A DNA stretch of 28,199 bases from Candidatus Wolframiiraptor sinensis (GCA_023261815.1 JALNKA010000011.1:1-28199), one strand, 5' to 3'. Shown: positions 1,543 through 8,894, counted from the first letter of the stretch. The notes: generated from the sequence alone by a model not told the origin. Made by a program: numbers and translations.

Positions 1543-1722
1543 TTACCATTCGAGCTTAGGCGCACAGGCTCACGGCCGCAGCCCCATGCTCTAAAAGCCC
1601 CTATTTATCCATGCGAGCAGAGCGCTTTCCCACGAGATAACTCAGCTCACAGATTCGGCAGTAAAATAATTTCAATTTCTCAGATCCTTCGGTGCGATGA
1701 TGAAATTATTGTTGCGGTAATG

Positions 1723-1797
1723 TGGGGCCGCTGGGATTTGAACCCAGGACCTCGCGGGCCCAAGCCGCGAATCATAACCAAGCTAGACCACGGCCCC
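1723..1797 (-). tRNA. tRNA-Pro(TGG)
   Basis: Reverse complement GGGGCCG TG GTCT AGCTTGGTT ATGAT T CGCGG CTTGGGC CCGCG AGGTC CTGGG TTCAAAT CCCAG CGGCCCC A; acceptor, anticodon and T stems all pair; no encoded CCA. Confidence 0.95.
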
Positions 1798-1893: not shown

Positions 1894-1921
1894 GCCCCGG
1901 TAGCTCAGCCGGCAGAGCGGC
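1894..1921 (+). pseudogene. 5' fragment of tRNA-Thr (left junction, attL-like)
   Basis: GCCCCGGTAGCTCAGCCGGCAGAGCGGC = acceptor 5' strand + D arm; 26/28 identical to 3229-3256; ends abruptly in TTAAGGCCCC. Confidence 0.9.
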
Positions 1922-2113
1922 TTAAGGCCCCCCTCACTTTAACACCCTAACATTAAACATGTTTATACCAAAACTTTTATGTCCGGGAACTTGAGGAGAA
2001 GTGCGGCGCATGGGGCTTTAAAGCCCGAGCAGTTAGCGACCCGACGTCTTCTGCAACGCTGAGAACAGGGTCCTAGGAAAAGAATTATTAGTTTACATGA
2101 TTATAGAACGATG

Positions 2114-2145
2114 TTTAAAAAGACTATGAGCTAATAGAGGAGGTG
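2114..2145 (+). promoter_or_regulatory. TATA-like box and Shine-Dalgarno site of the element ORF
   Basis: TTTAAAAA at 2114-2121 and GGAGGTG at 2139-2145, upstream of ATG 2148. Confidence 0.5.
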
Positions 2146-2147
2146 CC

Positions 2148-3095
2148 ATGGAGTTGACTGAAAGGAAGATATACTATGTGGATGTAGCTAATGCAGGAAA
2201 GAAGAATAAGTTGCATGCGGTTTTTGATGGAAAGAGGACCTTTAAGGTTAGGAGGTTGATGGAGCTCGAGGATGCTGATGAAATCTACGTTGACATGTTA
2301 TTCCCGGAGAACTACGGTGAGGTCTTAAAGATGCTAGAGAAGGGCATTAAAATCTTTCTGCTGACGGAAACAAAACTCATCAAAAAGCTGAGAGTCCAAA
2401 ACAATGTAAGAAAAACTGATGAAAATGATTCAAAAGTCTTATCACTAATCTCAAAAGAATGCTTCCGAAATGTGAGTGTGGAGGAAATTAGGAGGAGAAT
2501 GGAAATGCAACCATTGATAGCGAAATACGAGGTCTTAACCCGAAGGATTAAAACTCTAAAACAATGGCTTAAAGATGGTCAAACCTCCGAAGAAATAAGA
2601 AAGGAGATCGTGAAAACGTCAAGAGAATTCGAGAAAGAAAGGAGTAAGATTGGCAGAGAGATAATCAGTGCACTCGGCGAGAATTATCGAAAAATTCTGG
2701 AAAAGATAGGGTTGAGGGGTAGCGTTGAGGCAGCCATACTACTAACATACTTGGATCTTAGTCGTGGAATAAATAAGCTGTTGACGTATTGTTGGAGGAG
2801 TAGAAAAGTGAACGAGCATTTATCAAAGTTAGTGTATAGCATTTATCGCCACTATCTAAGGGGAGACGTGGTCCCGGAGGCGTATAGGAAATTCATAGAA
2901 GAATCGAGAGGAAAATTGTCGAAGAGGCAGTTGCTCGTGAGACTCAAGAGAATGGTCATCAAAGATCTTAGAAGAGCATACATCGAACTTTCGGTGAAGT
3001 CGGCATCGCAAATAGGTGCCTATGGGACCGGAGGAAATGAGCCTCAGACAGCAAGAGCGACGGACGCGTCTATAGTTTCTTTGAAAAACCTATAG
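2148..3095 (+). CDS. IS110-family-like (DEDD RuvC + coiled coil + Nop/Tnp-like C-terminus) recombinase/nuclease
   Basis: YYVD(12) strand, IYVD(49), KTDEND (D91, D94; IS110 KTDxxDA motif), helical linker, IGLRGSVEAAILL and KLLTYC..N.HL..LVY resembling the IS110 C-terminal domain; the GLxP..QSG loop is absent. Confidence 0.7.
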   Translation: MELTERKIYYVDVANAGKKNKLHAVFDGKRTFKVRRLMELEDADEIYVDMLFPENYGEVLKMLEKGIKIFLLTETKLIKKLRVQNNVRKTDENDSKVLSLISKECFRNVSVEEIRRRMEMQPLIAKYEVLTRRIKTLKQWLKDGQTSEEIRKEIVKTSREFEKERSKIGREIISALGENYRKILEKIGLRGSVEAAILLTYLDLSRGINKLLTYCWRSRKVNEHLSKLVYSIYRHYLRGDVVPEAYRKFIEESRGKLSKRQLLVRLKRMVIKDLRRAYIELSVKSASQIGAYGTGGNEPQTARATDASIVSLKNL

Positions 3096-3147
3096 ACGCG
3101 CTACAAGGCCGACCTGTCTGGGGGCCGCCTCATACGGTCTCATAGGC
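3018..3147 (+). ncRNA. Putative guide (bridge/seek/tigRNA-like) hairpin RNA
   Basis: Stems 3018-3030/3135-3147, 3037-3041/3129-3133, 3042-3051/3114-3123 and 3065-3075/3090-3100; symmetric 13x13 internal loop whose strands match the tRNA target. Confidence 0.7.
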
Positions 3148-3174
3148 CCTCTCTTTTCTTCTTCCCTTTTCTCT
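3148..3174 (+). terminator. Pyrimidine/U-rich archaeal terminator-like tract
   Basis: CCTCTCTTTTCTTCTTCCCTTTTCTCT directly after the hairpin. Confidence 0.5.
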
Positions 3175-3228
3175 ACATTCCTTTAAAGAGCTAAGGTTAA
3201 TTAGCTTGAGAGTAAAATAGATTTTACA

Positions 3229-3331
3229 GCCCCGGTAGCTCAGCGGGTAGAGCGGCAGCCTTGTAAAGTTTATGTGATCTTTTGTTTTTCAAGAAAGCTG
3301 CAGGCCGCGGGTTCAAAGCCCGCCCGGGGCT
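3229..3331 (+). tRNA. tRNA-Thr(TGT) with a 30-nt intron at 37/38 (3266-3295)
   Basis: GCCCCGG/CCGGGGC acceptor stem, GCTC/GAGC D stem, GCAGC/GCTGC anticodon stem, GCGGG TTCAAAG CCCGC T arm; BHB motif with CTTG/CAAG central helix and TAA and AAA bulges. Confidence 0.93.
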
Positions 3332-3422
3332 TCAATATTCCTAGTCACGTGTTTTCTCTTTAAGGCTTTAATGACCGCAAGGCTGCTAAGATTTATCATC
3401 TCAATTGTAGGATGTTGTTAGT

Positions 3423-4272
3423 ATGGTCTCCTTAGGTAAGCGGTATGCGACTTTACTTGAGGTCTGCCTAGTCTCTCTACTTCTGACTTTTGTTGGATGG
3501 CTCCGAGATGCTTATTTAGCCTACTTGAAGTGTAGTATGTTCTGGCATTTTGGCTTCCCCAGCATTTATGATGCTCATAGCCCTACTTGCCATAATCTTA
3601 CCCAGGAGGAGCTTTAGGATTTACGGCTTTCTGCCCAGAAGCCCGCGCTTTACATTGAAGTGGAGCTCAGCATTTATAGCGGTCTTTATCCTGCCCGCGG
3701 TGTTCTCAATCGGGGTGTCGGCAGCTCTGGGCGTGGCTAAGCCTGCTGGGCTATCGCCGCTCAGCATAATTCTAAACGTAATCTTCAACATGATTTTCAT
3801 CGGGCTTGTTGAGGAGGCTTATTTTAGGGGTTATGTGCGGTCTAGGCTTAATGAGGCCTTTGAGAGGCGCTGGCGGAGGCTCATCTTTAAGGCTTGGAAG
3901 GTCGATTATAGAATGAGCTTACCTCTAACCTCCATAATCTTCGCCCTGATTCACATAGTCAACTACTGGAATCCGATTATATCAAGGTGGGAGCCGGCTT
4001 GGTGGATGCCCATACACATCCTAGGAGCCTTCGCCTTCGGGTGCCTGGCCGGCGCTCTAAGGGAGGCATCAGACATTTATGTCTCGGCTTCACTGCACGG
4101 AGGCATAATGACCGCCTACACGTTTCTATCCATTTATACAAGCGAATTGACCCTAAACATCAGCCTATTCATCAGCTGGCTCATCTTCTTCTACCTTCTG
4201 GCCATCTTCTTCCATGAATCCGAGAACCTAAGTGGCCTAGATTTGAGAGGGCGCAGTAAGAATAGTGAATGA
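3423..4272 (+). pseudogene. CPBP (Abi/CAAX) family intramembrane metalloprotease, apparently frameshifted near 3528-3550
   Basis: ORF 3550-4272 has GLVEEAYFRG, FALIH and SLHG motifs; ORF 3423 supplies an N-terminal TM segment in another frame. Confidence 0.65.
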
Positions 4273-4393
4273 ACTTAGGTCTTCGGAAACCCTAGATCAG
4301 AAGGTTGGAGGGAGCCTGAGGTCGGGGGTTCGAAGCCGCTCAGGGTTACAGATTACGGCTTTCCTCATGTAGATTGCGTTTCTTCCGGATTGC

Positions 4394-5569
4394 TCATTCT
4401 TGAGCTGAGTGCTTGTTCAATATTCCCAGCGTTATGAGTGACGCTGCTTGAGTGATGATTACGTAGCCTATGATTGTGGGCGCTGGTAGTTGTAGTAGGA
4501 GTGTTAGTATGAGGCCGCCAACCCCCCATGAGATTCCGTAAAGCATTCCGAAGACTCCGTAGGCGATCGCCAGCCCCTCTTTATCCACTATATCCGCTAT
4601 TGAGGCCCTCATTATGGTCTCTGAGGCGCCCATCGTGAGCCCCCAGAAGGCTGCCATCACGTATGCTAGTATCGCGCTCCTCGTGGTTAATAGTAGCGGG
4701 ATCATTAATGTTGCTATTGGAGCTATGTAGAGGCTCCTGAACTTTATCACGTCGTAAAGGTGGCCTATTGGGAGGGCTATTATGGCGTCCACGCCCATCG
4801 CGATCGCGTATAGCATCGCTATCTCGGCATCTCCCATGATACCCCATGATTTCAGGAAGTAGGATGCTATGGCCCAGTGCAGGAAGCCCAGAGACTGGAG
4901 CATCATCGCCGATGTGTAGAGCCAAAACCTTCTGCTCAGGCCTCTGAACGAGAGCTTTCTCGGCGAGATCTCGACGCTCTTAATTTTCGGATAAAGAGAC
5001 CATGCCGTGAATATGAAAATCATCGCCAGAGTGCCCGGGATCAGAAGCATTAGAAATGCCTTGGAGTAATCATAGTGTATGAGCATGAATGCGAAGAGTA
5101 GGGGGCCTGCCAAGGCGCCGACTTGATCCATAACCTCGTGGAGGCCGAAGCCCTTTCCCCTGCCAACCCCCTCCGTTACCTCGGCCAGGATCACGTCTCT
5201 CAAGGGCGTCCTTAAGCCCTTTCCAACCCTCTCCACGAGATATAGCGCTGTCGCGATCCACCAAAATCCCGCGAAGGCGAGGAAGGGCAGGACCATGACG
5301 TTCATGGCGTAGCCCAGTGCTACGAAGCCCCAGAAGGCGGCCGAGGACCCCAGGTAGGATGCCAGCATACCGCTCACGAATCTGAGAGCATATCCCAGAA
5401 ACTCGCCCGCGCCGATTATGGATGACGCGATTGGCGGAGCTCCGAGATGCTCCAAATAGGCTCCGCTGGCGGATCTAGCTCCCTCATAAACCATGTCAGC
5501 GGCCAGCGAGATGAGCCCGAGCAGAACAAAAACCACCAGAGCTCTCCTACCATATCTCCTGAGCTCCAT
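4394..5569 (-). CDS. MFS transporter
   Basis: Multi-TM; ADMVYEGARS, ERVGKGLRTPLRD and GKGFGLHEVMDQVGA motifs; start moved to ATG 5569, with TTAAATA about 30 nt upstream. Confidence 0.85.
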   Translation of the reverse strand: MELRRYGRRALVVFVLLGLISLAADMVYEGARSASGAYLEHLGAPPIASSIIGAGEFLGYALRFVSGMLASYLGSSAAFWGFVALGYAMNVMVLPFLAFAGFWWIATALYLVERVGKGLRTPLRDVILAEVTEGVGRGKGFGLHEVMDQVGALAGPLLFAFMLIHYDYSKAFLMLLIPGTLAMIFIFTAWSLYPKIKSVEISPRKLSFRGLSRRFWLYTSAMMLQSLGFLHWAIASYFLKSWGIMGDAEIAMLYAIAMGVDAIIALPIGHLYDVIKFRSLYIAPIATLMIPLLLTTRSAILAYVMAAFWGLTMGASETIMRASIADIVDKEGLAIAYGVFGMLYGISWGVGGLILTLLLQLPAPTIIGYVIITQAASLITLGILNKHSAQE

Positions 5570-5775
5570 CGCGTTAAACCTCGGAAATGGAGTGAAATAT
5601 TTAAGAGTATTATGTTTTTGCGGATGGATGCTCAGGCGCATGGAATGAGCGAGTATAGAGGCTTGACGAGCGAGGAGCCATCACCGCACTATGGCTCATC
5701 GGATTAGAGTAAGCTGTGCGAAAAGCTCGGGAACTGTATCGCCAAATCTTTCTATTGGCTTCAATGTTTCCTCAT

Positions 5776-6144
5776 TTATTCATGCTTATCATCCTCATGG
5801 ATTCTGAGCATTCTCAGGAGCTTCTTCCGCCCCTCCCGAGGATCCTTGAGGGCTTCAAGGAGCTCGTTTGGGTCTTCCGCATCGAGGATATTTTCCTCGA
5901 TCATCTTTTTGGCCATTATTCGGATCATCGCATCGGCCCCCTGCCCGAAGAGTCTTCTCATCGCTACGTGGAAGCTGTGGGGGTCCGCGCATAGGGCATC
6001 ATAGGGATTATTCTGCAGCAACTTCTCAAGATGATATTCCAGAACCCTCAGCCCTGTTCTGCCTAAGAGCGTTTCAAGCACTGGTCGGATGATCCTAGCG
6101 ACCTCCCCTCCTGAGGGGCTCGGAGAATACTCCCGATGCGACAT
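5776..6144 (-). CDS. Small helical archaeal protein (DUF3227/NitrOD-like)
   Basis: Pattern L..LLG..G..VL.YHL....P..F...MRRLFG.GA..M; ATG 6144 preceded by GAGGT. Confidence 0.55.
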   Translation of the reverse strand: MSHREYSPSPSGGEVARIIRPVLETLLGRTGLRVLEYHLEKLLQNNPYDALCADPHSFHVAMRRLFGQGADAMIRIMAKKMIEENILDAEDPNELLEALKDPREGRKKLLRMLRIHEDDKHE

Positions 6145-6307: not shown

Positions 6308-7174
6308 ATGAATGGATTCGATTTGGGAATCGTCTTCTGGCTCTTCCTCCTATTGCTGATTTTTCTCTGGCCGCAGTATAGGCTTAGGGCTCTTCAGGGC
6401 GCTAGGCTCAGCCTGATCAGGAAGCTCGAGGCGAAGCTCGGATGCAGGGTCATCACGCTCATTCACAGGCAGGAGAGGATAGGGCTCTTCGGGATACCAT
6501 TTTACCGGTACATAGACATAGAAGACTCGGAGCACGTGCTCAGGGCAATCAGGACTACTTCGCCCGACACGCCGATAGCAATCATAATTCATACGCCCGG
6601 CGGCCTGGTCCTCGCGGCAGCCCAGATAGCCCTCGCCCTAAAAGAGCATAAAGCGAAAACGATAGCCATCATCCCGCACTACGCCATGAGCGGTGGAACG
6701 CTCATAGCCCTCGCGGCAGACGAGATCTGGATGGACGAGAACGCAGTCCTCGGCCCAGTTGACCCGCAAATAAGCGACCCGAGGCATGGAGCGATCCCAG
6801 CATCCTCGATCCTGAGAGTCGTGAATGAGAAAGGTAAAGATAAGGTTCGGGAAGAATACTTGTTGCTCGCGGACATCGCGGAGAAGGCGATGAGGCAGAT
6901 GGAGGAGCTCGTCTACAAGCTGTTAAAGGATAAAATGGGAGATAGGGCGAGGGAGCTGGCGAAGATAATGGTTGAGGGTAGATGGACTCATGATTACCCG
7001 ATAACGGTCGAGGAGGCCAGAAGCCTCGGGATACCGGTCAAGACCGAGATACCGGCCGAAGTCTATCAGCTGATGGAGCTCTATCCGCAGCCAGCCGCGC
7101 TAAGGCCGAGCGTCGAGTACGTGCCCGCGCCATACGCTCCGCCCAGGAGCCGTAGGGGCGAGCAGCAGAGGTAG
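6308..7174 (+). CDS. ClpP-class membrane serine protease (SDH_sah/DUF114 family)
   Basis: N-terminal TM, IHTPGGLVLAA, HYAMSGGTLIALAADEI, LGPVDPQ, WTHDYPI. Confidence 0.9.
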   Translation: MNGFDLGIVFWLFLLLLIFLWPQYRLRALQGARLSLIRKLEAKLGCRVITLIHRQERIGLFGIPFYRYIDIEDSEHVLRAIRTTSPDTPIAIIIHTPGGLVLAAAQIALALKEHKAKTIAIIPHYAMSGGTLIALAADEIWMDENAVLGPVDPQISDPRHGAIPASSILRVVNEKGKDKVREEYLLLADIAEKAMRQMEELVYKLLKDKMGDRARELAKIMVEGRWTHDYPITVEEARSLGIPVKTEIPAEVYQLMELYPQPAALRPSVEYVPAPYAPPRSRRGEQQR

Positions 7175-7186
7175 TGGCCGCGGGGT

Positions 7187-8158
7187 GTGCGGGGCTTGAG
7201 GAGGATTGGGATCGTTACGAGCGGCGGCGACGCGCCCGGCATGAACGCGGCGATAAGGGCCATCGCCAGGCTCGCGGCGTGGAGCGGCATGGAGGTCATC
7301 GGGTTCGAGAGGGGCTGGAGCGGCGTGATCAGGAACGAGTATGTATTGCTGGAGCCTAGGGCTGTTAGCGGCATACTCCACCTCGGCGGAACGATATTGA
7401 AGACGAGCAGGTGCCCGGAGTTCAAGACCAGAGAGGGCGTCGAGAAGGCGGCGAGAAGCATAGCCGAAGATGACCTCGATGCCCTGATAGTGATAGGCGG
7501 CGATGGCTCGATACGCGGAGCACATGAGCTGAGCAAGCTCACCGACGCGGCGATAATAGCTCTACCCGCCTCAATAGACAACGATGTATACGGGACGGAT
7601 GAGACGATAGGATTCGACACCGCCGTCAACACGGCTTTGACGGAGATAAACAAGATCAGGGATACCGCGGTATCGCTTGAGAGGACGTTCATAGTGGAGG
7701 TGATGGGAAGGAATAGGGGCTTCCTGGCCTCCGAGATCGGATTAACCGCCGGAGCAGAGGTAATTCTCGTTCCGGAGATACCGTATAACGAGGAGGTGAT
7801 CTTGGAGAGGCTTAGAAGGGATGCAGCCAAGGGCAAGAGATCGAGCATAATAGTTATCGCTGAAGGGGTTGGGAAGACGAGGGAGCTCGCGGAGGCCATA
7901 GAGAGAAAGGTCGGGGTTGAGGTCAGGATAAGTATCCTCGGATATGTTCAGAGGGGCGGGAGCCCGACAGCTAGAAGCAGGCACCTCGCATCAGTCTTCG
8001 CGGAGAAGGCTATAGAGCTGCTGCTCGACGGCGAGAGGAGCAGGGTCGTCGGGATACAGGGTGGGAGAATAACCTCGGTAAGCCTGGCGGAAGCATGCAG
8101 CAATCAGAAGCCGCTCAACCTGGAGATACTGAAACTCGCCGAGAAGCTCGCAATATGA
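7187..8158 (+). CDS. pfkA: ATP-dependent 6-phosphofructokinase (PfkA family)
   Basis: TSGGDAPGMNAAIR, GGTILKTSR, IGGDGS, SIDND, GFDTA, EVMGR, LGYVQRGG. Confidence 0.92.
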   Translation: MRGLRRIGIVTSGGDAPGMNAAIRAIARLAAWSGMEVIGFERGWSGVIRNEYVLLEPRAVSGILHLGGTILKTSRCPEFKTREGVEKAARSIAEDDLDALIVIGGDGSIRGAHELSKLTDAAIIALPASIDNDVYGTDETIGFDTAVNTALTEINKIRDTAVSLERTFIVEVMGRNRGFLASEIGLTAGAEVILVPEIPYNEEVILERLRRDAAKGKRSSIIVIAEGVGKTRELAEAIERKVGVEVRISILGYVQRGGSPTARSRHLASVFAEKAIELLLDGERSRVVGIQGGRITSVSLAEACSNQKPLNLEILKLAEKLAI

Positions 8159-8208
8159 GAGCCCGGAAAAGCGCAATTTCATATTCAACAAACTCTCCAG
8201 CTAATCGA

Positions 8209-8283
8209 GGAGATGATGAGCGCGTCCTTCTCTGAGCATGAGGCGCGATGAAGAGGGGGCGATGGAAGAAGCTGATCCCCCTC
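8209..8283 (+). ncRNA. Candidate box C/D sRNA
   Basis: C box ATGATGA 8213-8219, D' CTGA 8232-8235, C' ATGAAGA 8248-8254, D CTGA 8272-8275, in the gap between convergent genes. Confidence 0.55.
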
Positions 8284-8315
8284 CGATGCGGAGCACATTG
8301 ATTATTTGATCGCTG

Positions 8316-8894
8316 CTACGGCTTCTCTCCTAGGATCTCGTGGGCCTTCGGCCACTCGACATTATAGAGCTCTGGGTTCAGCCTCGGGATGAGCGCCGAT
8401 ACTATCGCCTGCGCGCACAGGTCTATTCTCCTAACGCGGTCTCGCGTCAGGTATCCCACAGCTCCGCCCTTGCGCCCGATCTCCCTGATCCCCGAGATCT
8501 CCTCCATGACCTCCTCAGCCTCCCGAGCCCTTCCACCCAGTATCCTCTCCACGACGATTACCGGAAACTCGAGTGTCATGCTGAACCCGAGAGTAACCCT
8601 CTCCTCGGAGTCGATTATCGCGCACACATGCTGATCGGCGTATCCCGTGATGCTGTGCAGGACCCTCATGAGCCCAGCCTCTATCCCGACTCCGAGATCA
8701 GCATCAGCCTTCCTCAAGGCCTCCCACGCCCTTATGACAGCCCCCCTAATAGTCTCCTCGAAGCCTATGGGCTGCGGCGGAACATCGACCGAGATGGGCG
8801 CGACTTCCACCACGCCGAAGAACTTCTCGAAGCACATTTTCACGGCCTCTATCTTGACCTCGTTCATCGAGCCGACTCCAACACGCATGACCAT
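8316..8894 (-). CDS. yjjX: Inosine/xanthosine triphosphatase (DUF84/YjjX)
   Basis: VGSMNEVKIEAV, QPIG.EET..GA..RA, GVGIEAG, GAVGYLT. Confidence 0.88.
   Translation of the reverse strand: MVMRVGVGSMNEVKIEAVKMCFEKFFGVVEVAPISVDVPPQPIGFEETIRGAVIRAWEALRKADADLGVGIEAGLMRVLHSITGYADQHVCAIIDSEERVTLGFSMTLEFPVIVVERILGGRAREAEEVMEEISGIREIGRKGGAVGYLTRDRVRRIDLCAQAIVSALIPRLNPELYNVEWPKAHEILGEKP

Follow-up and report, generated by a model that had tools for sequence, protein, structure and literature searches.

A TasR-like gene with a dual-spacer guide matching its own insertion site: a candidate RNA-guided homing element in Candidatus Wolframiiraptor sinensis

Introduction

What does an IS110-like protein do without the loop that carries the catalytic serine, and why does its gene stand inside a tRNA gene? 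Both questions are raised by a stretch of 28,199 nucleotides from Candidatus Wolframiiraptor sinensis (GCA_023261815.1, JALNKA010000011.1:1-28199), hereafter the window, in which an open reading frame (ORF) of 315 amino acids lies between a remnant of a tRNA-Thr(UGU) gene and an intact, intron-bearing tRNA-Thr(UGU). An earlier interpretation made from the DNA alone (the sequence-only reading) had described a compact IS110-like protein with an intact acidic RuvC set and a collapsed serine loop, provided with a single guide and located at its own target. It had proposed either an intermediate between IS110 and TIGR-Tas that cuts and homes, or a decayed IS110. To our knowledge, the IS110 elements, which are serine-dependent, are the only known mobile elements with a Nop fold.

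We conclude that the gene probably belongs to an element that homes or inserts under RNA guidance and has a TasR-like nuclease at its core. Sequence comparison brings to light the fold and family of the protein, a guide hairpin, matches between its spacers and the flanks, empty sites in related genomes, a multi-copy state and a patchy distribution; from these, we infer the chemistry of the element's mobility.

A TasR-like protein family without a serine loop

The ORF is preceded by a Shine-Dalgarno sequence at 2138-2144, with GGAGGTG directly 5' of the ATG. A word-index homologue search with the window protein returned only two near-identical proteins, and a search of the ESM Atlas provided only leads. 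A HMMER scan with a small profile retrieved 165 representative clusters with E <= 0.001, 95 with E <= 1e-10 and 30 with E <= 1e-30. We aligned 39 full-length members (alignment A2), namely the window protein, a paralogue from its own genome (G000; 1.18 Mb, 33 contigs) and 37 of the 150 representatives listed, chosen among the long ones; the column counts given below refer to this alignment.

The four acidic residues that the sequence-only reading had assigned to the RuvC domain (D12, D49, D91 and D94) are present in the window protein and fall in conserved columns. Aspartate occupies the D12 column in 36 of 39 members, with a gap in the other three, and the D49 column in 34, with glutamate in four and proline in one. 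The D91 column contains aspartate in 28 members, histidine in five, alanine in four, threonine in one and a gap in one, while D94 and the nearby K89 are invariant (39/39 each).

Where the IS621 chain carries its serine loop (AGLTPRRYESGS), residues 211-225 of the window protein read LLTYCWRSRKVNEHL, and S218 is the sole serine in this stretch. The collapsed loop and its only candidate serine had, thus, been read correctly as far as the residues go. The S218 column, however, contains asparagine in 22 and serine in seven of the 39 members; S218 corresponds to the N position of a family Y-N motif and is, therefore, not a conserved serine. No QSG-type motif was found in the segment between the Y.GL position and the ..R..L helix in any of the 39 members, nor does any column among them hold a conserved serine at the IS110 loop position. 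This segment measures 12 amino acids in six members, including the window protein, and 15-26 in the other 33. The extra-short loop is a trait of a sub-clade, whereas the absence of the serine loop is family-wide. A private deletion, raised as an alternative by the sequence-only reading, does not account for a serine-less state common to all aligned members. As a side observation, a distant subfamily (locus L003, which is G000 C13, and G000 C12:672-1720) has a longer loop, reading FLGLYKP...RSGERY in the broken L003 copy.

An AlphaFold2 model of the window protein built with A2 (pLDDT 92.1, pTM 0.83) contains, in order, a beta/alpha N-terminal domain, two long helices and a helical C-terminal domain. 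Helix 208-217 is predicted to join helix 219-237 directly, with no beta hairpin between them, and residues 300-315 form a disordered tail whose coding part overlaps the guide RNA described below. When the A2 profile was compared with solved chains, the best match was 9MTY, by its title a TIGR-TasR structure (E 1.4e-11 over 182 profile positions), followed by TasH (E 1.7e-5) and IS621 (E 0.049). Faure et al. 2025 (PMC12045711) give a Thermoproteota archaeon as the source of TaTasR. Foldseek also ranked 9MTY first (E 7.5e-7), ahead of IS621 and ISCro4. By VIA-align, 9MTY scored Z 16.6 (249 aligned residues, rmsd 4.1), nearly equalled by ISCro4 (9T56, Z 16.1) and IS621 (8WT6, Z 16.0); TasH scored Z 12.5 over the C-domain only, Nop56/58 about 8 and RuvC about 7.

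The IS110 label itself rests, as judged from these sequence searches, on weak direct matches only. Pfam assigned no family to the window protein, with neither PF01548 nor PF02371 appearing up to E 10, and the NCBIfam IS110 match was sub-threshold (E 0.008, residues 60-101). Among the 39 members of A2, PF01548 was weakly matched in six (best E 3.5e-5) and PF02371 in one. The predicted fold is that of a RuvC domain, a coiled coil and a Nop domain, for which structural comparison ties TasR with IS110 and sequence profiles place TasR nearer. The likeness to TasR nucleases noted by the sequence-only reading for a RuvC-coil-Nop protein without the serine insertion was, hence, borne out.

A dual-spacer hairpin matches both halves of the interrupted tRNA gene

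The empty site of the window element is preserved in two genomes of the same genus (G007 and G002), where an MFS gene is followed by tRNA-Pro, about 95 nt and an uninterrupted tRNA-Thr(UGU); in the window, tRNA-Pro(UGG) is likewise the neighbour of the interrupted gene. The homology of the window to this empty site ends at 1921, which is tRNA position 28. The remnant left of this junction keeps its own TATA-like box upstream, and its last bases (1913-1921, CAGAGCGGC) constitute half-site H1. Beyond the element, the first 28 nt of the right tRNA duplicate the remnant except for two D-loop changes (direct repeat D1, the 1894..1921 remnant region versus 3228-3256, 93%). The right tRNA has an A29-U41 pair, and its segment 3256-3265 (CAGCCTTGTA) is half-site H2 with G29A. 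Among the 47 tRNAs called by ARAGORN in the G000 assembly, no other is a Thr(UGU) gene.

The 3' end of the ORF and the following 55 nt, that is, the right end of the element, fold into a long hairpin with a minimum free energy (MFE) of -71 kcal/mol (z -6.92; none of 200 shuffles was as stable). One large internal loop, closed by an inner hairpin at 3065-3100, holds two putative spacers. Over all ten bases, spacer B is antisense to the tRNA at the empty site in G007 and G002; against the window's own right tRNA it has a single mismatch. Spacer A agrees with tRNA positions 19-28 in seven of ten bases, AGAGCG being contiguous, and the DNA strand of H1 with which it would pair is the bottom one. 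Both half-sites share tRNA position 28, the exact left junction, and they meet at 1921/1922. The candidate target duplex for the protein and the 3014-3150 RNA would contain AGAGCGGCGGCCTTGTA. A pattern search found no perfect composite target in G000; the right tRNA (G29A) and two Thr(CGU) genes come within one mismatch each.

No other guide was apparent around the gene. The fold of 1890-2150 was no better than that of its shuffles (z -0.83), Tandem Repeats Finder (TRF) run on the whole window found no TIGR array near the gene, and Rfam at the gathering threshold found only tRNAs in the window. Permissive Rfam scans of the loci yielded nothing useful, and an sR39 match in L003 (E 0.2) was dismissed as not credible. 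The proposal of a single guide at its own target is supported in a more specific form: one hairpin with two spacers appears to match both halves of the tRNA-Thr gene, and the same logic recurs in other copies and their empty sites.

Copies in related genomes carry their own matched spacers

The complete related genome G030 holds five copies that have about 1.6 kb in common at 87-96% identity. Their right-end RNAs follow one order: outer stem, UAUGAC, spacer, UGACGU, inner hairpin, UAUGAC, spacer, GACGU, outer stem. Both spacers are hypervariable among the five copies. In the flanks of each copy, one of its own spacers is found in sense orientation on the left and the other as the reverse complement on the right, exactly in four of the five and with at most one mismatch in all of them. 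Swapped-spacer controls gave no exact match in 20 and four with at most one mismatch, and the copies' own spacers gave no match in the wrong orientation. For three of these copies, the sister genomes G027 and G036 retain the empty site, where the half-sites adjoin with a 1-nt overlap. The first (...CATCCTTAAATAATCT...) is located in the TATA box of a tRNA-Thr(CGU) gene; the other two read ...CAGGGTTAAATAATGC... and ...TCACGATTTATACCGT...

RNAalifold applied to ten right-end RNAs yielded 14 base pairs, with compensatory changes in three, and long hairpins were found at the same place in all nine further loci of other subfamilies that were inspected. All loci read have one guide unit per copy. 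GAC/UGA-type boxes flank the spacers; a K-turn-like motif (UGAUGA...GUGA) is confined to the subfamily of L003 and C12, in whose right-end RNA it forms a canonical-looking box C/D K-turn within the outer stem.

A tRNA gene lies directly downstream on the same strand in seven of 28 distinct loci scanned (about 1.5 kb of flank each), and the layout of the window recurs: a remnant of a given tRNA, the element and then an intact, divergent, intron-bearing tRNA of the same kind. The G000 paralogue sits at tRNA-Leu(CAA), again the sole gene for that anticodon. L012, a copy in G034 inserted at tRNA-Asn(GUU), has a 9-mer in sense on the left and a 10-mer in antisense on the right, and ARAGORN joins the distal tRNA remnant over a '1303-nt intron'. 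L011, L010 and L017 each have one 9-mer antisense to the tRNA directly downstream. A 9-mer match of the L002 3' loop at L002 (reverse complement) 2108 was taken as chance, since it lies inside an apparently intact gene.

Further observations were made on these copies. In L011 (reverse complement, about 2624-2750) and L012 (reverse complement, about 2573-2680), the downstream tRNA has a D-arm intron after ..GAG; these introns fall inside the sense half-site of the copy's own guide and interrupt the predicted target. The conserved left ends of L011, L024, L025 and L027 (..TATTCTATTCTTGGTGCTTGGTATAG..) are of the G030 type and contain GCTTGGTA. The anticodon loop of tRNA-Thr(GGU) has this very sequence, which the L011 guide targets as well; an ancestral tRNA site may have left it behind. 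Finally, the two G000 paralogues L002 (2364-2597, - strand) and L003 are directly preceded by fragments of one type of small ORF (..LINLTPHEITIY.. / ..IPINRVEYGEVEG..), which suggests that some versions of the element have a second gene.

Copy number, distribution and insert ends

The genome of the window contains 12 profile matches, including at least two other long open frames (C17, C12), the others being fragments. Matches were found in 18 of 41 relatives, at 0-29 per genome, many of them broken or with stops. In a phylum-wide even sample, 29 of 401 genomes had a match (E <= 1e-10), all within three families of the order of the window. By family within this order, matches occurred in 10/24, 8/15 and 10/17; a fourth family had 0/3, and other families had none. 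Public runs containing the window stretch are hot-spring metagenomes. A metagenome scan with the single protein recovered only the same locus in a 99% identical strain and is uninformative on mobility.

Insert sizes defined by empty sites are 1632, 1979 and 2449 bp, with a common core of about 1.6 kb. The left ends differ by 0-115 nt between copies, and between 33 and 785 nt of DNA (the right extra) separate the conserved right end from the right half-site. In one copy, truncation has brought the left end exactly to the half-site, and ATTTAT or TTAA is present on both sides of two inserts. The right extras of one G030 copy and a G036 copy have 416 nt in common (85%), corresponding to a gatD-like 5' fragment that lies between the conserved right end and the right half-site (L024, reverse complement, 2876-3290; L015, 2512-2995). 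This shared fragment looks as if it were flank DNA that travelled along from an earlier site.

Proposed mechanism and alternatives

We propose that the product of the ORF is a DNA endonuclease of the TasR type, guided by RNA. Its RuvC domain looks active, the coiled coil would serve dimerisation and the Nop domain RNA binding, and its partner would be one dual-spacer, box C/D-like guide RNA derived from the 3' end of its own gene. The spacers would pair with opposite DNA strands of two adjoining half-sites of 8-10 bp. Joined, these would form the uninterrupted insertion site, in this case the D-stem and anticodon arm of tRNA-Thr(UGU), at positions of about 20-37. According to Faure et al. 2025 (PMC12045711), TasR has two 9-nt spacers on opposite strands; the cut in either strand follows the fifth base of the spacer, and the 3' overhangs produced are 8 nt long. 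The geometry of the guide is the same here, and a dimer on one RNA that recognises the uninterrupted site is, therefore, the natural reading. Because the insertion separates the half-sites, the occupied locus would be spared, while an unoccupied allele would be recognised and presumably cut. Repair templated by the occupied copy would then insert the element, a homing or gene-drive-like step, and joins formed at homology or microhomology would account for the variable ends and the dragged flank DNA. At tRNA sites, the dragged piece would consist of a promoter and a replacement 5' tRNA part in register with the target, so that a working, slightly different tRNA would remain. Such a tRNA extra could arise if the broken right end annealed to the homologous tRNA beside the donor copy. 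The replacement tRNA may, in addition, be resistant to the guide, through a mismatch next to the junction in the window or an intron inside the half-site in L011 and L012. We infer cleavage, the route of repair, the immunity of the replacement tRNA and the reprogramming of spacers from these comparisons. The fuller proposal, in which an autonomous archaeal RNA-guided homing element with a single self-encoded dual guide cuts empty sites, is copied by repair and brings along replacement gene parts, is put forward tentatively, as a real possibility that falls somewhat short of probable.

Several observations weigh against a homing element of this kind. D91 is replaced in ten of the 39 aligned relatives, besides the one gap. 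Spacer A is the weaker match, with its seven of ten bases, and the right tRNA is one base off the perfect target, its immunity being an assumption. Every copy has its own spacers, and their rewriting before or after a move has no explanation. At L002, both 8-mer half-sites lie uninterrupted in the left tRNA fragment, with the junction 7 nt further, and no left half-site was found for L011. Four of the nine loci that are not of the G030 type gave just 8-mers, estimated to be at chance level; a broad scan for 8-mer pairs between right-end windows and flanks was not discriminating (own flanks 20/22, foreign flanks 367/462). In Logan contigs, where absence proves nothing, the RNA run X20 yielded small contigs of 90-96% likeness covering parts of the ORF and none over 3062-3203, and no contig of the DNA runs X2, X4 and X11 skips the element. 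One metatranscriptome contig of X20 (depth 3.6, likeness below 96%) joins 3011 back to 2172 with one extra base, which could be an assembly artefact or reflect a circular or tandem form.

The main competitor of the homing element is an RNA-guided transposase or recombinase working in the manner of IS110, with RuvC-only chemistry. In that case, the guide would pick the target and strand transfer would be direct, with no host repair, the ends of the element being recognised by the protein or by the same RNA. The near-equal fold scores of IS621 and ISCro4 (Z 16.0-16.1), the multi-copy state with each copy exactly at the site that its guide specifies, and the conserved right-end motifs fit this scheme. 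It has to contend, however, with the family-wide absence of the serine loop and with an RNA in which the only loop pair is that of the guide, a donor loop being absent. Moreover, precise recombination would not give left ends varying by 0-115 nt or right extras varying by 33-785 nt. We regard it as unlikely, while taking it seriously. The variable insert ends, the flank DNA carried along and the microhomology at the junctions favour cutting and homing, as far as these sequences can indicate. A rather improbable alternative is that the protein serves maintenance, as an addiction nuclease or binder resembling TnpB in IS200/605, or as an RNA-guided repressor. The guide would then mark the empty site, loss of the element would be punished or repaired, and movement would be left to other host or mobile functions. 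Its guide matches the uninterrupted site, as such a role would have it, and nuclease-dead TasR repressors are described in a preprint (bioRxiv 10.64898/2026.09.09.750476). On the other side, the window element, of 1.3 kb, is without a second mobility gene, the acidic residues are conserved, and copies at different sites have different, matched guides.

That the gene is a non-functional relic of an IS110 whose serine loop was deleted, the second option of the sequence-only reading, is very improbable. The weak IS110 matches (NCBIfam E 0.008; PF01548 in 6/39 relatives, best E 3.5e-5) and the many broken copies in relatives agree with decay, but the serine-less state extends to all 39 aligned members of a family of 165 representative clusters, the acidic residues are conserved, the model is confident, and the guide hairpin and spacer-flank matches are intact. 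We give equally little credence to a box C/D-like small ribonucleoprotein (sRNP) that modifies tRNA, with the hairpin as a small RNA acting on the anticodon arm of tRNA-Thr and the protein as an analogue of Nop5. The tRNA itself is complementary to spacer B, GAC/UGA-type boxes follow the guides, and one subfamily has the UGAUGA...GUGA K-turn-like outer stem. Spacer A, however, is in the sense orientation of the tRNA, other copies are directed at promoters and at ends of protein genes, on non-transcribed or both DNA strands, the RuvC acidic residues are kept, and the fold match to Nop56/58 reaches just Z about 8.

Relation to known systems

Among known systems, the TasR of TIGR-Tas (TaTasR, 9MTY) is the best match in sequence and fold, as it likewise combines an N-terminal RuvC domain, a coiled coil and a Nop domain with no serine loop. 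As in TasR, two short spacers would address opposite strands of one DNA target. In contrast to TIGR-Tas, whose proteins are known as array-guided nucleases, each gene here comes with a single hairpin unit and no tandem array. The guide forms a long stem-loop that overlaps the ORF at its end, and the gene itself occurs as an insert in several copies, with spacers that correspond to the DNA flanking it. The targets of TIGR were largely unknown according to Faure et al. 2025 (PMC12045711).

The IS110 bridge-RNA recombinases (IS621, 8WT6; ISCro4, 9T56) have the same three-part fold (Z 16), RuvC acidic residues and the format of a small single-gene element, in which an RNA encoded by the element itself has left and right guides, one for each strand, that determine where insertion takes place. 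The family described here differs from them in lacking the catalytic serine loop (..GL.P...SG..), in falling below the thresholds of both PF01548 and PF02371 (profile E 0.049 to IS621), in having one guide loop pair instead of the separate target and donor loops of the bridge RNA, and in its variable insert ends with flank DNA carried along. On these sequence-based grounds, the element is apparently without defining features of both IS110 (serine loop, donor loop and Pfam families) and TIGR-Tas (array).

TnpB and IscB of IS200/605 elements are guide-RNA nucleases that home onto the empty site. The resemblance consists in an element-encoded guide to the uninterrupted site and a proposed role of double-strand-break repair in spread or upkeep; the protein fold is unrelated, there is no TnpA partner, and the dual-spacer guide is wholly inside the element. 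Archaeal box C/D sRNPs (Nop5, L7Ae, fibrillarin) have in common with it the Nop domain, the coiled coil and an RNA layout of C - guide - D' - C' - guide - D. Unlike Nop5, whose RuvC-like domain is inactive, the window protein retains the RuvC residues, and its half-sites are in DNA, on both strands. We found no description in the literature of a single-guide, self-targeting, mobile TasR-like element; supplements, such as table S1 of the TIGR-Tas paper, could list such loci.

Other features of the window

The features of the locus are collected in Table 1. Relative to the 99% identical strain (L043, run X11), the pyrimidine tract of the window has a 14-nt indel (3154-3167) and substitutions cluster at 3176-3228; nowhere else does the locus vary as much. 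A G000-specific segment of about 2.4 kb (about 3335-5800), for which no tie to the element was found, separates the right tRNA from the first gene in synteny with G007 (from about 5803). It contains two membrane-protein genes: an MFS-like ORF (4394-5641, - strand) and an ORF for a CPBP-like membrane protease (3550-4272), the latter found in one of 14 genomes of the genus. A 'tRNA-Glu with 1791-nt intron' called by ARAGORN at 6680-8557 was rejected as a false call, as the sequence is not tRNA-like.

Table 1. Coordinates of features at the TasR-like locus, counted from the first nucleotide of the window.
Feature	Position	Strand	Basis or remark
tRNA-Pro(UGG), chromosomal neighbour	1722..1797	-	ARAGORN, Rfam; synteny with G007 and G002
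Left remnant of resident tRNA-Thr(UGU), positions 1-28	1894..1921	+	28/28 identity to the syntenic tRNA of G007 and G002
Left part of insert, 5' leader of the ORF	1922..2147	+	TATA-like box near 2114; no convincing RNA structure
TasR-like protein (RuvC, coiled coil, Nop), 315 aa	2148..3095	+	Family profile, AlphaFold2 model, fold matches
Candidate guide RNA, long hairpin	3014..3150	+	Inverted repeats I1 and I5; folding versus shuffles
Spacer A (CAAGAGCGAC)	3052..3061	+	5' side of loop; sense to tRNA positions 19-28
Spacer B (TACAAGGCCG)	3102..3111	+	3' side of loop; reverse complement of tRNA-Thr(UGU) positions 28-37 (CGGCCTTGTA)
Pyrimidine-rich end of the element, then TATA-like box for the downstream tRNA (right extra)	3151..3228	+	Tract recurs at the right end of other copies
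Intact intron-bearing tRNA-Thr(UGU)	3229..3333	+	Rfam 57.9 bits; ARAGORN intron 3266-3295

Implications

With a TasR-like protein placed in a mobile element, a natural target becomes readable from flanks and empty sites, and a concrete target of 16-19 bp with its guide pair is obtained. Self-propagation, thus, becomes a candidate natural function for the TasR-like fold; for TIGR-Tas proteins, natural targets and roles are mostly unknown. At 315 amino acids, the window protein is also a compact candidate for a programmable nuclease from a thermophile, judging from its sequence. The element is a candidate evolutionary bridge between a transposon, an array system and a small nucleolar ribonucleoprotein (snoRNP); if it is a homing element, it would connect IS110 bridge recombinases, TIGR-Tas arrays and box C/D sRNPs as a free-living link. 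It also offers a possible mechanistic link to the disruption of tRNA genes and the placement of introns in thermophilic archaea. Since the intron of the replacement tRNA splits the guide half-site in two copies, such an element, if the proposal is true, would exert a direct selection that gives rise to tRNA gene fragments and to tRNA introns in odd places.

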